Source of the DNA: a virus | Taxonomy: Duplodnaviria; Caudoviricetes | IMG/VR virus record: IMGVR_UViG_3300001598_000001 | Coordinates: 32,001-96,000 of that record | Length of the DNA stretch: 64,000 nt | Direction: 5' to 3' (one strand) | Shown: in pieces, positions 9,748-47,500 of the stretch | Layout of the letters: the number at the start of each line of letters is the position of its first letter | Numbering within the stretch: the stretch's first letter is position 1 | The notes under the pieces: generated by a model | What the model saw: only the letters and a program-made list of their open reading frames with translations | What the model was told of the DNA's origin: nothing | The model's database searches: none | Made by a program: the position numbers and the translations under genes

Positions 9748-10440
9748 TTAATTTAAAATATGCGAATCGACGCCATTATCATTTTCATGGTCGTCGTAAT
9801 CACTGTGATTGGGATCAACAGGTTTATTAAAATGTTTGTCAATATTATCTTGAAAAATTTTTAATTCATCGGTTGAAAATTCATATCCTTTACTTTTTAA
9901 CAAAGTTAGATATAATGGATCAAATTTTGTAATATCTAAAGACGTAATATACATTGGTTCTTCCTCGGGTGCAGCAAAAGAAAAATCTAACGGTACACAA
10001 TTATAAAACATTCTCATCATTGATGCAACCTCTACGGCAGATAAATGCATTTTAGCAATACTGTAAATATTTTTTGGATCATCTGGGTCTAAACAAGAAG
10101 TTAGATATTCATTCCAAAGTTCAGAAGTGTAAGACGGAATCTTTGTGTCATCTTTAACATGTTGCACACACCAGCTTTTAAAATGATCATAATTATTATA
10201 ATAAGTAAAACGACCGATAGCTTCTGTGGCTTCTTCTAATGAAGATACTACACATAATAATTTGTTAGAATTATGTGATGGAAAAATACCATAACAAATA
10301 ACGCTGTCTTTTGCAACAGCAGATGTTTTACCACGCTTCTTGGCTTTTTTAATATTCGATTTTGGCTTACAACGAAACAATGTGGATAATAACAATTTAA
10401 TTTTTACTAATGATATCATACTAATTTTTTCCTCCCACAT
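9748..10440 (-). CDS. Hypothetical protein
   Basis: Up to 230 aa; start may be the Met at 10419. Confidence 0.65.
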   Translation of the reverse strand: MWEEKISMISLVKIKLLLSTLFRCKPKSNIKKAKKRGKTSAVAKDSVICYGIFPSHNSNKLLCVVSSLEEATEAIGRFTYYNNYDHFKSWCVQHVKDDTKIPSYTSELWNEYLTSCLDPDDPKNIYSIAKMHLSAVEVASMMRMFYNCVPLDFSFAAPEEEPMYITSLDITKFDPLYLTLLKSKGYEFSTDELKIFQDNIDKHFNKPVDPNHSDYDDHENDNGVDSHILN

Positions 10441-11116
10441 TTTGAGTATCTATAATATATTTATAAATTATTTTAATAGTATTTGGAGTATAAGGTCCAA
10501 AATATATTTTTTCATCATCTTTTTGAGACTCTAATATATCATGACACCACTCCAAAGTAAAACAAGGAATTGGTTGCTTAGAACCCACTACTTCCATATT
10601 TAAATTATAATGGGAATGCAGGTAACTTGTCAATTGGTTTTGCTGAGTAGTGGACAAACGAGTAATATCTGCTAAATAGAATATAACTTTACGATCGTAA
10701 TATACTCAATGAGATGAGTGAAAAAATTTACGATAATATACTGTAAACGCAATTAATAATTGTAAAATTTTAGAATCAAAATTATGTGCAGGAGAAGAAT
10801 TATATAATTCTTGTGCAAAAGTTATTAATTGTTGTACATCACTATTATATAAAAATATTTGACCTTCATCGGACTGAGCGACATCTAAAAGACAGACGTC
10901 TAAAAATTTATCATAAAATTCAGGAGCTGTTAAACGATCATAAATTAAATTAGCTATTGGAGCAACAGAAGAAACTGGAAACGAATAATCTGTAGTAAGA
11001 ACAGAAATAATATTATTAACGGTTTCTTCTTTAGAAGTGTTAGCAGTTAAATGATTGCGTACTAAACGATACATTTGTTGTCATTCAACTGGTTGTAGTT
11101 CAATAAGTTCTTTCAT
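10421..11116 (-). CDS. Hypothetical protein (TGA=Trp)
   Basis: ORFs 10706..11074 and 10421..10657 join in frame through TGA at 11081-83 and 10706-08; GGAGG RBS; 231 aa. Confidence 0.75.
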
Positions 11117-40220: not shown

Positions 40221-40294
40221 GTTGATTTAATTTAATGGAAGAATAGTTGTTCAGTAAACAATGCACATTGGTTCGATTCCAATAATCAACGCCA
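40221..40294 (+). tRNA. Atypical tRNA, anticodon AGT (Thr by anticodon; identity uncertain)
   Basis: GTTGATT/AATCAAC acceptor, ATTGG-TTCGATT-CCAAT T arm, GTTGT-TCAGTAA-ACAAT anticodon arm, G-CCA end; C at position 33. Confidence 0.65.
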
Positions 40295-40547: not shown

Positions 40548-40642
40548 AGGGGCTTAGTGTAGTGGTAGCACACGAGACTTCAAATCTCGGGTAACAGCGT
40601 CCAAAGCTGCGGGTGTGGGTTCGATTCCTACAGCCCCTGCCA
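40548..40642 (+). tRNA. Opal-decoding tRNA-Trp(UCA) with a 25-nt variable region
   Basis: AGGGGCT/AGCCCCT-G-CCA acceptor (Trp-like), GTGT/GCAC D stem, CGAGA-CTTCAAA-TCTCG anticodon arm, GTGGG-TTCGATT-CCTAC T arm. Confidence 0.9.
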
Positions 40643-40650
40643 TATATTTA

Positions 40651-41183
40651 AACAGTATAAATTTAAATATATTAGATCTCGGTGTAAACCAGACAATCTG
40701 GCCGAGAGTTACAAAGTAATGGATAGGTTTAGAGGATACCCTAAACTGAAAACCAAGATTATTATAGTGATATAATATGAGAAGATACCAACTAGTATCA
40801 ACAACGGGTAACGTGCTAATATAATATCGGAGATAAAACCTAAATCCAACGCTCTCGTAATAACTCGTCCATATGCTCATACCAGGTGGTGCTGATGGTC
40901 AACATATGGAAAAACCAACAAGAGAGAATGCCTTGATGTCTAGTAAGTAGACTATAAGTTGGGATAAGGACAAGTAGCTGAATGGCGGTTCGTATGAAAA
41001 AGTACATATTTCAAAATCTGAAAGTCGGTGAAAGTTAGAGGTACCCAGTCCTCTCGATGGTAAAAAGGGCAAGAAGCTTTATGGTCGCAACTTAAAGCTC
41101 AGACTTGTTCTATTCGTAGTTTAACAATCAGATATTATAAGTGGTAAGACGAAGGTCTCTAATACATTTAAATTTATACTGTT
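40651..41183 (+). ncRNA. Large structured ncRNA, ROOL-like
   Basis: ~530 nt closed by a 26-bp near-perfect terminal stem; many internal hairpins; no credible ORF; tRNA-adjacent. Segments resemble ROOL from memory only. Confidence 0.65.
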
Positions 41184-42907: not shown

Positions 42908-43168
42908 AATATTAGATAAAAATAGGTGAAAACATACATAACTTAACAATAGACCCTATAATAGTATAAGATGGTAAGAGGCTTGTACTGATAGTTATGA
43001 CGAAAGTATAATTCAAGATGGAGATTAGATCCTCGTTCAATTATATCACATCGGTGAAAAGGGTTTCCCTATATTAGGTAGACAAACACCGTAAGAAACA
43101 TCTATTATTTGGTGAACTGTTGAAGGTTTTAAATGTAAGTTAGGTTGACGTGCTTACAGCCAAATCAT

Positions 43169-43241
43169 GGGGATGCGTAGATCGTCTGTTATATTCATGT
43201 ATAACAAAAACAAGAGGGGCAGCTCCTCTTCATCTCCACCA
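43169..43241 (+). ncRNA. tmRNA tRNA-like-domain mimic lacking the mRNA domain
   Basis: GGGGATG/CATCTCC-ACCA acceptor with G3.U70, no D stem, one 7-bp hairpin, T arm AGAGG-GGCAGCT-CCTCT. Confidence 0.6.
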
Positions 43242-43440
43242 AAAAGCTGACCGACAAAAGTCATTAAACTGCTCCATACATACTTTCATGCGATGGTTAA
43301 TTGAGAAGAGAAAGCGAAGTTAGAAGATTAAAATATCATTCTTCAAATTAGGTACTTTGGATAATTAAAAGCCTATATTTCATTATATGTAATAAAAATA
43401 GGATTTTATTACAATCATTAATCAACAGGAGGATTTAACA

Positions 43441-43776
43441 ATGAAATATTATAGTGAAAAAGTAAAAAAACTTTTTGATTCTGAAAAAGAATTAGAAACA
43501 GCAGAAAAAGAATTTGATGCTAAAGAATTAGAAGAAAAGAAAAAATTAGAAGCTAAAAAAGCTAGAGCAACTGAAGTAGAAGATGCCTATAAACATTCTA
43601 TTGAAGTTAGAAAAGAAGCGCAAAAATTAATTGATGAAGCTGATAATGCTTATTATGATTTAAGAGATGCTTTTGTTAAAGATTATGGTTCTTTCCATAT
43701 GACATACAAAGATTCTAGCGAAAAACCAGTTACATTATCTTCTTTTTTTGATATTTTTGATAAATTTTGGTTTTAA
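43441..43776 (+). CDS. Coiled-coil phage protein
   Basis: 111 aa, AGGAGG RBS. Confidence 0.75.
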   Translation: MKYYSEKVKKLFDSEKELETAEKEFDAKELEEKKKLEAKKARATEVEDAYKHSIEVRKEAQKLIDEADNAYYDLRDAFVKDYGSFHMTYKDSSEKPVTLSSFFDIFDKFWF

Positions 43777-43780
43777 TTAT

Positions 43781-44332
43781 TAAAGTGGTGTTCCGCTACC
43801 ATTAAAGGCGAATTATGATGATGAATTAAAATTGGTGAAAACAACCAACCATTTCTCAGGTAGAGATAGACTGAATCGTTAGCGAAGGATAGGTCGAGAA
43901 CAAGTGTGATAGCATGCATACCAGAGGACCGAATGAGGGTGCATGTGCTGGCTAGAGGCAGAGAGCCCTGAAGAATATGCCGATGAGGAACTTGCAACTA
44001 ACTTTGATATTTTATGTGGTTGAGAACAAGTTTAGGTAGATGCTGAATTCCACGTTATAGCGAGATTACAAAATCACGTGCGAACCCATAAAGCAGCCAA
44101 AAATATCTCAATTCTTCTGAATGATCGTTGACGGTCTATAATAGATAGGACTTATAGAAGAGAGATTCAGCCAAGAGGTGTTTGTGAGAAGGAAAACTCA
44201 CCCTATCAAATAAACCTCTCAAATTGGAGCAAAGTAGTGACCACTTACGGCATAGCGGAATGGACTGCTGTATAAAAGGTCGGTGTTATTCCTACCCGCT
44301 TTCATGGCAATGCAAAAAGGAATTACGTTTTA
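43781..44332 (+). ncRNA. Second large structured ncRNA, family unassigned
   Basis: ~550-nt GC-enriched interval without a credible ORF; nested helices such as CTGAATC/GATTCAG and GATATTTT..TGGTTG/CAGCCA-AAAATATC; ends 6 nt before tRNA-fMet. Confidence 0.6.
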
Positions 44333-44338
44333 ATATAT

Positions 44339-44412
44339 CGCAGGGTAGAGTAGTGGTTACTCAGTGGGCCCATAACCCACTCAGGCGAGTTCAATTCTCA
44401 CCCCTGCAACCA
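44339..44412 (+). tRNA. Initiator tRNA-fMet(CAT)
   Basis: C1:A72 mismatch, GGG/CCC anticodon stem, CAT anticodon, ACCA end. Confidence 0.85.
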
Positions 44413-44553
44413 ATTATTATTATTTTTCCAAAGGAAAGATAATGAATATTAATTTTTTGTGGAAAAATAATAATTATTTAAATAATTATTAATATAATAT
44501 AAGTCGCTTAAATAAAAGCGGCTTTTTATTTAGTAAAATAGGGGGTATAGACC

Positions 44554-47500
44554 ATGAAAGAAAAAATAATTGAATATACAAACCTTAGTGATATTGATTT
44601 TAGTAAAAATAGCACGTTATACAAAGATATTAGTAGTATGGATAAGAAAGTCCGTGCTTTTGACGCTAGATCCAATGAAATTAATGATAAAATAAGTAAA
44701 GAAATATTCAGAGACGCTTTAGTAAGTGGTGGTAACAATAGTATTTTAGATTCTTTACATGGTATAGAAAACCTATGTCGTAGTAACGGAATTCAAACTA
44801 AAGTAACAGTAACAAACGATGGAATTAGTTTAGTGGCTTATGATGAAAATAATCAAGTTGTACCAGTTATCTCTTATATGGCTGGTTCAGATGGATTAGT
44901 AATTCGTGATAATTTAGTAGTATTAGATTCTTTGTATTATAGTCAAAATAATGCCACTGGTAAATCTCAATTAATTAATGGAACAGTTGCTTATTTAAAT
45001 GAGTTTAATAAAATTTTAAAAACTAATTGAAGTAAGTTAAAATCACAAAAACAAGATTTTAGTTCTATTTTACAGTTTGCTCGTAATGAAGCTAATAAAC
45101 AAATTCCTATAACTAATCAAGGAACTTATAAATTTGTTGGTAATTCTGGAAAAGAGATTTTATCAAACTTAAAAAAACAAAAAAATGTTTTTAAAAACAA
45201 GAGTAAGAGTTTCGATGTTGATCCTAGTGCGTTTTGAGAAAATATTATTTATGACACTGTTAGAAAATCGGTAGCTCCTGGGGTTACTTCACAAGATCAA
45301 TCTTGAGCACAAAAAGAACGTGAAATTCGTCCAATAATAGAAAAACTTGCTAAAGAAGCTTCTAAACTACCTTCTGTAAAACAAGCAACTCGATTATTTA
45401 GTGAAGATTATGATATTAGAAAATTAATTACTAAAGACAGTAATCTAAAAGCTAAGATTATGGAAGCGGTTAGATTTTTTTCTGAAATTACTTGAAATCA
45501 ATCTAATATGTCTGAAGCTGATGCCCATAAAGGTAAAGTGGCAATATTTGGCGATAGTAGAACTGGTATTTCTGGTCAAGAATCAATTACTAAAAAAGAT
45601 CAAGGTAGTTCATATTTAAAACGAACTAAAGCTGGTCAACACAATACTTATGCACATGTAGCTGGTGGTATTTTAACTTCTAAAACAGGTTTTAAAGGTA
45701 ATTCTGCAGATTATGATTTATTTACTATTGCTCCTGTTGAATCTGAAGCAATTTCTGAAGGTATGAATAATATGTTTAAAGCAGCCGTAGAACACGAAAA
45801 GGTTGCTCGTGAAAACATTAAAAAATACGGAGAAAATATCAAACACAAGGCAGAATTAATTAAAATATTAAAAAATAAACTTGATACTATTAAAAAAGAT
45901 GACTATAGTGATTTAGAACATGAAATGATTTCTCAAATTATGGAAATTTATGAAAATTATCGCACTGTTCATGATACAGGTAATAATCAAGTGCAATTTG
46001 ATACTCCTGAAGAATTTAGAGATTATTTAGTTAATGAAGCTAATAAACGTTTTGCTCAAAAAGTAAAACAACGCAAAACTTATAATAAAGAAAGAAAGAA
46101 ATCTTTAACTAGTGAAATTGCTGATATTAAAGTTGCAAACACAGACGCTAAATATAAACAAGCAGCAGCTAAAGCTTATCATAAAATTAATGAAGAATCT
46201 GTAGAAGATTTTGCTTTAGACAAATTGCGCAAACAATATCATATGGATTTTAATCCTAATAAGCCTCATTCTGATGTGTTGGATGATCAAATCATTATAG
46301 TTAAAGAAGCATTAGCTGAAATACAAACACAATTAATGCAACAACAAGTTTTTACAGAAAAAGATATTAAAAAAGCTATGAAAGCTGGAAATTATCAAAT
46401 TTCTGAAGAAGCTGTGTTGGCTAAAATAAACGAACAACGAAAACAGCAAGGTTTAGATCCTGTTTCTATGAAAGACCTAAAAGTTGGACTTAATAAAGAA
46501 AAAGGTGTATTTACAGCACAATATACTGAAGATTTTATTATCAAAGAAGGAACTAAATTATTAAATTATTTAGGTAGAGAACGTTGATCTTCTTCAAGTT
46601 TACCAGCAGATGTAATGAAATCTGTCTTAAAAGCACAAGCACGATTAATTGCTTCTGTTAAATCTGGTACTAATGATGTTAATGACACTAAATATCAAAA
46701 AGAATTTGCAAAAGCCAATTCTATGTATTTTGATTCCAATGATAATCTTAAAGTTGCAGGCGTTAGTGGAATTAGTTCATCTATTAAAGGTGAAAAATTT
46801 TATGGTTGAAGCCAAGGTGTTATGTCCTATGCTTTAGGTGAATTGTTTAATCAAAGTTATAAAAAGAATATTTCTAATGGTCAAGAAAAAGCAGTAGCTA
46901 AGTCTGAAGCTATTAATAAAGTTCGTGAAAAATGAAATGAATCTGTAGATAAACTAGTCGCACAAGGACAATTAACTACAGAACAAGGTGAAAAATTTAA
47001 ACAATTAGTTACAGGTGTTAATGAAAAAACTGGAAAAGTAAATTTTAATACTGATTCAAAAATTACAGATTTTGTTAATAAAAATTTAGTACATTACGTC
47101 AAGTTAATTAATACTGTTTACAAAGATAATACAGGCCGTAAACTTGGTACTTATAAAAATAATAAAAATGAAGGAGAAGTTTTTGAACTTGATCCTTATG
47201 CTTTATATGATATAGGTATTAATCCGTCTATAGTTGCCGAGGGAGATTGGGATCCACATAAGAGAGTTTCAATGGCTCATAATGAAAGACAAATTAAAGA
47301 AAGAGAAAATGAACGTTTAGCAGCTATGGGTAAAGACGTCACTGTTGAAAGAGCTATGCTTGATGTTCAATATGAACAAGCTATTGAAAAAAATACTAAA
47401 TATCAAAATAAATTAAAAGCTGTTAGAGACGCAGTTACTAATAATTTTAATGCTGATAGAATTGATGTTGAAGACAAAGATAAAGATATCACAGCTATTG

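Follow-up and report, generated by a model that had tools for sequence, protein, structure and literature searches.

A probable new family of pseudoknotted non-coding RNA upstream of an initiator-type tRNA in a phage tRNA/ROOL island

Between a small protein gene and a tRNA gene of this gut phage lies a GC-rich interval without genes, which raises the question of whether it encodes a large structured RNA and, if so, whether that RNA belongs to a known class. The window (the whole stretch of 64,000 nucleotides that was analysed) covers positions 32001-96000 of a phage genome that is complete at 131,489 bp, bears direct terminal repeats and has an overall GC content of ~29%. The gene-free interval (43777-44338, 562 nt) extends from the stop codon of a 111-aa ORF (43441-43776) to tRNA-Met(CAT). 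Within 43781-44332, no open frames were found under translation table 11, table 4 or with TAG read as Gln, the longest being shorter than 95 aa and overlapping the tRNA. A spurious 74-aa minus-strand ORF, used as a protein-database query for genes miscalled over homologous RNAs, gave no match. GC content reaches 0.44 at 43800-44100 compared with 0.22-0.30 in the flanks (~27% nearby), and the plus strand is purine-rich. With no ORF, this GC excess and a gap of 6 nt to the tRNA, the locus matches the initial annotation, which had placed an ncRNA in a GC-enriched interval just upstream of tRNA-fMet. The tRNA carries a C1xA72 mismatch and three G-C pairs (GGG/CCC) that close the anticodon stem, which are hallmarks of bacterial initiator tRNAs and make it an initiator-type tRNA-Met. 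The terminator downstream of it is the sole plus-strand terminator-like site within 43300-44700.

The surrounding island brings together a suppressor tRNA, a ROOL RNA and tRNA-fMet (Table 1). Reading frames of the window phage open up under table 4, and ARAGORN reports a tRNA with a UCA anticodon (40548-40642); this long-armed tRNA, labelled 'SeC' by the program, resembles an opal suppressor. As ROOL begins 12 nt past it, ROOL was probably excised from a tRNA-ROOL precursor. The Rfam tRNA model gives 54.7 bits at 40221-40291, where ARAGORN calls no tRNA. A second GC-rich (0.37-0.39), ORF-poor patch lies at 43000-43300, upstream of the 111-aa ORF; neither ARAGORN nor Rfam at its gathering thresholds has a match in it.

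The initial annotation had listed nested pairings across the interval, and we located CTGAATC/GATTCAG (43871 and 44164), GCATGCAT/GTGCATGT (43912 and 43939), GATATTTT with TGGTTG (44006 and 44017) facing CAGCCA with AAAATATC (44094 and 44100), CACGT/ACGTG (44051 and 44076) and the nested GAGG-TGTTTG-TGAG hairpin (44174-44219) where they had been placed. A stem proposed to join the ends (43786-95 with 44320-27) exists but is weak, with only UUCC/GGAA contiguous, and is unconserved in relatives. As the minimum free energy of the interval is no better than that of dinucleotide shuffles (z = -0.21 and +0.09 for the two strands), support for the RNA is comparative. By themselves, the listed pairings are within chance; their credibility comes from conservation and compensatory changes in relatives.

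Four sequencing studies yielded Logan contigs with ~85-97% identity to the core of the interval; in the sequencing runs, of which the shares were small, 44260-44440 (including the tRNA) was without contig cover. One of these contigs, from the metatranscriptome of run X1, is a single RNA-library contig that gives neither ends nor strand and could reflect DNA carry-over. An invariant 18-mer derived from the Logan contig data was used as a query, and the sole other IMG/VR record found with it is a complete, distantly related 115,863-bp phage (G001), in which a homolog of the full core at L062:10184-10515 matches helix by helix. Over 157 nt of the 5' domain (window 43830-43982, L062:10184-10339), the two copies share 78% identity. 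The two phages have one common syntenic block of structural genes (30-72% protein identity), and most of their proteins are 30-50% identical or without detectable similarity. Their best shared protein gene reaches 67% DNA identity over 1.7 kb. Bar one 46-nt match, the 5' domain of the RNA is the most similar substantial stretch between both genomes.

Table 1. Features of the RNA locus and contigs matching it. Positions are those of the window.
Feature	Position	Strand	Details
ROOL RNA (RF03087)	40654-41177	+	233 bits versus gathering score 99.1; 2.6 kb upstream of interval
5' flank	43777-43826	+	Small hairpin 43786-43803; unrelated sequence in G001 and X1
Conserved core	43827-44170	+	5' domain P1-P5, 3' domain P6-P8, closing helix Pb, pseudoknot PK
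P1	43833-47	+	Hairpin UGGU/ACCA; invariant in G001, X1, X3
P2	43854-66	+	Hairpin UCUC/GAGA; invariant in G001, X1, X3
Pb	43871-43877 / 44164-44170	+	CTGAATC with GATTCAG; perfect 7 bp; closes core, brackets P3-P8
P3	43877-84 / 43978-85	+	Encloses J3/4, P4, P5 (43877-43985)
Invariant junction	43896-43912	+	GAGAACAAGUGUGAUAG
P4	43912-43946	+	Hairpin GCAUGCAU / GUGCAUGU; variable loop
P5	43953-43970	+	Hairpin UAG.GGC AGAGA GCC.CUG; inside invariant stretch 43940-43967
PK	43989-44032	+	AACUUG 43989-94 with CAAGUU 44027-32 (inside P6)
P6	44006-13 / 44100-07 (44006-44107)	+	GAUAUUUU/AAAAUAUC; encloses P7
P6b	44017-22 / 44094-99	+	TGGTTG/CAGCCA; encloses P7
P7	44051-44080	+	Hairpin CACGU/ACGUG; conserved loop GUUAUAGYGAGA (44054-44065)
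P8	44106-44165	+	UCUC..UCUUCU / AGAAGA GAGA (AGAAGAGAGA); loop motif UCUGAAKGAU
3' extension	44171-44332	+	Includes nested hairpin P9 (44174-44219); not alignable with G001
Initiator-type tRNA-Met	44339-44412	+	6 nt 3' of RNA; ARAGORN and Rfam tRNA model, 44 bits
Intrinsic terminator	44501-44534	+	9-bp stem, 6-nt loop, T run
Run X1 contig	43827-44082		97% identical; metatranscriptome
Run X2 contig	43899-43965		
Run X3 contig	43834-44067		
Run X4 contigs	43918-44105 and 44121-44259		Latter 96% identical

The limits of this conservation define a unit smaller than the ~550 nt of the initial annotation. Homology with G001 begins at 43826-43830, the X1 contig diverges upstream of 43827, continuing for 78 nt into unrelated sequence, and neither 43777-43826 nor 44171-44332 has a counterpart in G001. 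The conserved unit is therefore ~345 nt long (43827-44170), with the outer closing stem and the last 160 nt being lineage-specific.

The core comprises ten helices and one pseudoknot. In the 5' domain, P1 and P2 are joined by an invariant CCAUU stretch; as neither hairpin varies among the relatives that cover it, this best-conserved sequence is uninformative on pairing. Seven pairs of P3 are kept in G001, with one two-sided and three one-sided changes, and a 43884 G>A substitution in the X3 contig turns a G-U pair into A-U. Part of the neighbouring junction, GGUYGAGAACAAGU, recurs at 44018 as a direct repeat with 126-nt spacing, which is lineage-specific as G001 has the first copy only. In viral contigs, this two-copy GAGAACAAGT pattern returned chance matches only. 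P4 reads GCAUAUAU / GUAUAUGU in G001, so that two adjacent pairs are compensated, and variation in X2, X3 and X4 clusters in its loop (43920-43939). P5 is identical in G001 bar one G-C to G-U change, and X4 breaks its outermost pair.

In the 3' part, the PK helix crosses P6 and therefore forms a pseudoknot. Two substitutions in X4 (43992 U>C and 44029 A>G) amount to a double compensation in it, and G001 has GAAUAA/UUAUUC at the equivalent positions, a 6-bp match of a kind expected about once by chance. P6 reads GGAAAUUU/AAAUUUCC in G001, with three of eight pairs compensated. The conserved P7 loop sequence is displayed by a GUCAUU/AAUGAC hairpin in G001, and the X4 changes are confined to the non-conserved half of the loop. 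P8 has its equivalent in UCUCUCCC/GGGAGAGA at the corresponding position (stem z = -2.1), and both P6 and P8 were recovered by folding each sequence separately. For Pb, seven of eight pairs form in G001 at the equivalent position relative to P3 and P8, a result that 31% of shuffles match. In the P9 hairpin of the 3' extension, X4 keeps a pair through 44185 U>G and 44200 A>C, and one further change breaks a pair. The P8 loop region (44115-44125) also holds an 11-nt sequence, UUCUGAAUGAU, that equals part of the ROOL consensus, with G001 having UCUGAAGAU there; this may reflect a tertiary or binding motif common to both RNAs or be coincidence, the chance expectation being ~0.07 by rough estimate.

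Taken pair by pair, the comparison of the window with G001 covers 41 positionally matched pairs, of which 31 are identical, four changed on one side, six compensatory and none broken. For the 5' domain (43822-43990), RNAalifold returned five helices, in which 34 of 34 pairs form in both sequences compared with 31-46% after a shift of the 3' partners by 1-3 columns; four pairs changed on both sides and four on one, in a structure derived from those same two sequences. RNAalifold gave no structure on a partly gapped pseudo-alignment of the read-derived variants, for which explicit pair bookkeeping was used instead. This counted two double compensations, four one-sided compatible changes and one indel among the Logan relatives, with three of 12 evaluable changes breaking a proposed pair. 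Read on the opposite strand, several of the conserved G-U pairs would become A-C, indicating that the fold belongs to the plus-strand RNA, and indels of 1 and 2 nt in the window-G001 alignment exclude coding. Collecting homologs, a check that the initial annotation had suggested, thus yielded compensatory changes in both G001 and the Logan contigs, but just two divergent full members, and covariation among these and the near-identical fragments is suggestive. A compensated structure on one strand with no coding potential, the generic mark of a structured ncRNA gene, is found in two divergent members. Overall, a level of conservation that no shared protein gene reaches, the compensatory changes, G-U pairs that hold on the plus strand only and a promoter in G001 (see below) support a structured ncRNA, and it is very probable that the interval encodes a genuine folded ncRNA.

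To place this RNA among known classes, all 4227 families of Rfam 15 were searched with permissive filters (E<=10) against 43300-44900 and against the G001 copy (L062 9300-10700). In 43300-44900, the tRNA was the single match, with none inside 43781-44332; at gathering thresholds, ROOL and tRNAs were reported in the window and none in the interval. The ROOL model (RF03087, gathering score 99.1 bits) gave no match at E<=10 in either region, although it scored 233, 322, 316 and 278 bits on positive controls, and neither copy (interval 562 nt, core 345 nt) was matched at E<=10 by the GOLLD model (RF01998). No covariance-model match was seen for OLE, raiA, HEARO, group II introns or other large bacterial RNAs in Rfam 15, nor, inside 43781-44332, for RNase P RNA, tmRNA, T-box or tRNA-like elements (Rfam models, with ARAGORN for tRNA and tmRNA). 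The group I intron model (RF00028) found none in the interval, and the same model does find an intron in G001, 550 nt upstream of the RNA there (L062:9444-9716, 59.5 bits). Directly after that intron comes a tRNA-like match of low score (18 bits, E 1.4), in a phage otherwise without an ARAGORN tRNA gene, so that the locus could be an intron-bearing or decayed tRNA. A match of the manA-II motif (RF04315), likewise a phage-associated structured motif, to P6-P7 of G001 (20.7 bits versus a gathering score of 100, E ~1) was rejected as chance, and the window's own copy gave no match to this model. These searches support the absence of the RNA family from Rfam 15. They agree with the initial annotation, which had noted no obvious similarity to the ROOL-like RNA and no core motifs of RNase P or group I introns, and its check against GOLLD, ROOL and OLE leaves the novelty standing with respect to Rfam 15. 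Of its assignment as 'GOLLD-related or new class', the second part is supported with respect to Rfam 15 and the first is not, with no GOLLD match and a reversed pattern of conservation. We found no published description of the RNA in a comparison that lay outside the 10,006 candidate viral RNAs of PMC10690425.

How widespread is the RNA? The motif GGCTAGAGGCAGAGAGCC occurred in viral contigs in G001 only, with chance matches only in JGI metagenomes and GTDB genomes, and the motif pair CCAACCATTTCTC..GGTAGAGA found G001 alone. No GenBank phage was matched by blastn ('distant') with either copy as query. A covariance model (R1), which recovered G001 as a positive control at E=2.5e-39, detected no copy in 91 further whole viral records bearing ROOL or the neighbouring small ORF, and nhmmer and R1 found the RNA in none of the 76 ROOL loci fetched from one motif scan; it is therefore not a general ROOL companion. 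One R1 match (L006:3708-3912, E=0.56) lies inside a 216-aa ORF and a tRNA and was discarded as spurious. The RNA never follows homologs of the upstream 111-aa ORF (20 viral loci, 85 proteins), viral contigs gave no relatives of the 158-aa, 359-aa and 167-aa neighbours, and homologs of the YunG-like ORF downstream of the G001 copy are flanked by tRNAs or ROOL and never by the new RNA. It is thus present in two of 93 related viral records. Judged from these collections, the family appears real but rare, with two divergent full members and a few near-identical metagenome fragments, and its absence from the 91 other records and every collection scanned points to a cassette that is accessory and rare, within a tRNA/ROOL island of variable content.

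The loci compared show how variable this island is, with tRNAs, ROOL, group I introns and small ORFs gained and lost. A closer relative of G001 (G002) is without a 2.9-kb block that includes the RNA, and in G001 itself ROOL lies 350 nt downstream of the new RNA. The ~100-aa Lys/Glu-rich protein encoded upstream of the interval (43441-43776; L062:12153-12452; L146:10001-10306) recurs in the tRNA islands of large gut and rumen phages (85 homologs). It is found 0.2-2.3 kb from ROOL in several phages, but as it flanks only four of 75 ROOL loci, it is not a general ROOL partner. Most phages with homologs of this small ORF (L002-L021) appear to recode TAG, with CUA tRNAs and frames that open under TAG=sense; the window phage recodes TGA instead.

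What the RNA might do is best approached through the genes around it. In G001, a sigma70-type promoter (TTGAAT-17-TATAAT) ends ~10 nt before the conserved start. It is among three copies of one promoter element in G001 (L062:8020-8065, 10130-10186 and 10915-10975), another of which precedes ROOL. This conserved element (~45 nt; TTGnnn-17-TATAnT, then ATTTATA), seen also in L103, L100, L153, L157 and L158, heads separate RNA and small-gene cassettes in this phage group. For the window copy, a promoter-like site at 43757-43786 is weak (9/12 match), and none there is convincing. Downstream of the G001 copy, the last ~100 nt before the next ORF (Pfam Phage_YunG-like) are common to kin that have promoter, leader and ORF without the RNA, indicating that this stretch is the leader of the ORF and lies outside the RNA. 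The conserved leader of this 93-aa ORF (L062:10540-10643; also L120, L153 and L157) has a long-range GCGCGC/GCGCGG stem before the ribosome-binding site and may be a small cis-regulatory element.

These arrangements bear on whether the RNA acts in cis or in trans. As a cis-acting leader, it would form the extended, structured 5' portion of the precursor or mRNA and govern processing, stability or read-through towards the downstream gene; in both phages it does sit directly upstream of a same-strand gene with no terminator between, and the G001 copy lies between the promoter and the ORF leader. However, the genes downstream are of unrelated types (a tRNA gene in one phage, a protein gene in the other), relatives of G001 have the ORF with the same promoter and leader and are without the RNA, and a 345-nt, ten-helix pseudoknotted fold far exceeds known phage leaders, so that we consider a cis-acting leader unlikely. 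Because the downstream gene differs in kind and kin keep ORF, leader and promoter without the RNA, trans action is favoured. Our preferred reading, which we hold to be probable, is that 43827-44170 on the plus strand forms the core of a gene whose product is a stable, pseudoknotted ncRNA that acts in trans and represents a new family.

The cassette-like make-up of the island, where elements come and go, suggests a second possibility, in which P1-P5, P6-P8 and the P9 extension are a string of smaller modules, processed apart and shuffled between phages. Conservation of the 5' domain (78%) far above that of the rest and a lineage-specific 3' extension would fit such a string, but both domains co-occur in the same order in both phages, and neither ~1.2 Mb of related loci nor the 91 viral records yielded a module on its own. 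Moreover, Pb brackets P3-P8 with 7 bp and PK ties the linker to the P6 domain, both pairings being at chance level in G001. On balance, separate modules seem rather improbable.

A highly divergent ROOL or GOLLD member would share this habitat, in phages, beside tRNAs and with ROOL within a few kilobases in both genomes, and would account for the 11-nt identity to the ROOL consensus in the P8 loop region. We regard it as very improbable, as neither copy matches either family at E<=10 where true ROOLs score 233-322 bits, R1 matches none of ~80 ROOL sequences, the 11-mer has to be read against its rough chance expectation, and GOLLD is conserved at its 3' end and variable at its 5' end (PMC12286853), which is reversed here. 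That the interval is a non-functional spacer or a decayed gene with accidental pairings, as a folding-energy z of ~0, the very narrow distribution and the absence from close G001 kin might suggest, is most unlikely given the top nucleotide identity between two phages otherwise at 30-70% protein identity, no broken pair and six compensated ones among the 41 compared, and a GC content 15 points above background.

Returning to the stable trans-acting RNA, a model can be proposed for how it would be made and used in the window phage. The RNA, the core of which carries a private 3' extension to ~44332 in this phage, would be co-transcribed with tRNA-fMet as far as the terminator, and cleavage by RNase P at the 5' end of the tRNA (44338/44339) would create its defined 3' end. 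By analogy with ROOL and GOLLD, it might build up in the infected cell as a compact, folded particle working in trans, in the form of an RNA-only or RNA-scaffold body that helps the phage to take over tRNA supply and translation, and not as a cis regulator. Any specific activity assigned to it is doubtful at best. One such assignment, which we think has only a slim chance of being right, is a third ornate phage RNA class alongside ROOL, a compact pseudoknotted particle, inherited jointly with ROOL in a variable RNA island, that self-assembles or docks tRNAs or ribosomes and helps to reprogram translation in a TGA=Trp phage. For such a particle, the invariant AGAGA and AGYGA loops and the D-arm-like UCUC-AGGUA-GAGA hairpin might be candidate T-loop-type contacts to the tRNA elbow.

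Large, intricately folded RNAs without a protein partner are rare, the known few being ROOL, GOLLD and OLE; these have recently been proved to build RNA-only cages, the purpose of which is still unknown. The locus described here would add another conserved pseudoknotted RNA of several hundred bases, found beside ROOL in the tRNA/ROOL islands of gut and rumen phages, and with it an independent object for asking what large RNAs do in infection. Its compact 345-nt core is a target for structure work, and its presence or absence across related phages offers natural comparisons with and without the RNA. The rarity of the RNA and the lack of a functional clue limit the immediate impact.

Among known systems, the closest in character are ROOL and GOLLD. 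Both are large phage RNAs of tRNA islands, and the RNA-only cages that they form may serve to hold tRNAs or to bind ribosomes (PMC12286853). Like the new RNA, ROOL (RF03087) is a large phage RNA (~0.5 kb) of unknown function, built of multiple helices and pseudoknotted, that lies in tRNA islands abutting a tRNA, and it is present in the same two phages. It differs in having a different helix layout, with no similarity to the new RNA in sequence or by covariance model, and in being far more common (76 loci from one motif scan, compared with two of 93 related viral records). GOLLD (RF01998) is likewise a large ornate RNA of phages and prophages, often located by tRNAs including tRNA-Met, of which one half is conserved and the other variable (PMC12286853). 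In contrast to GOLLD, which exceeds 800 nt, the new RNA measures 345-550 nt and has no match to the GOLLD model, and whereas the conserved half of GOLLD is at the 3' end, that of the new RNA is at the 5' end.
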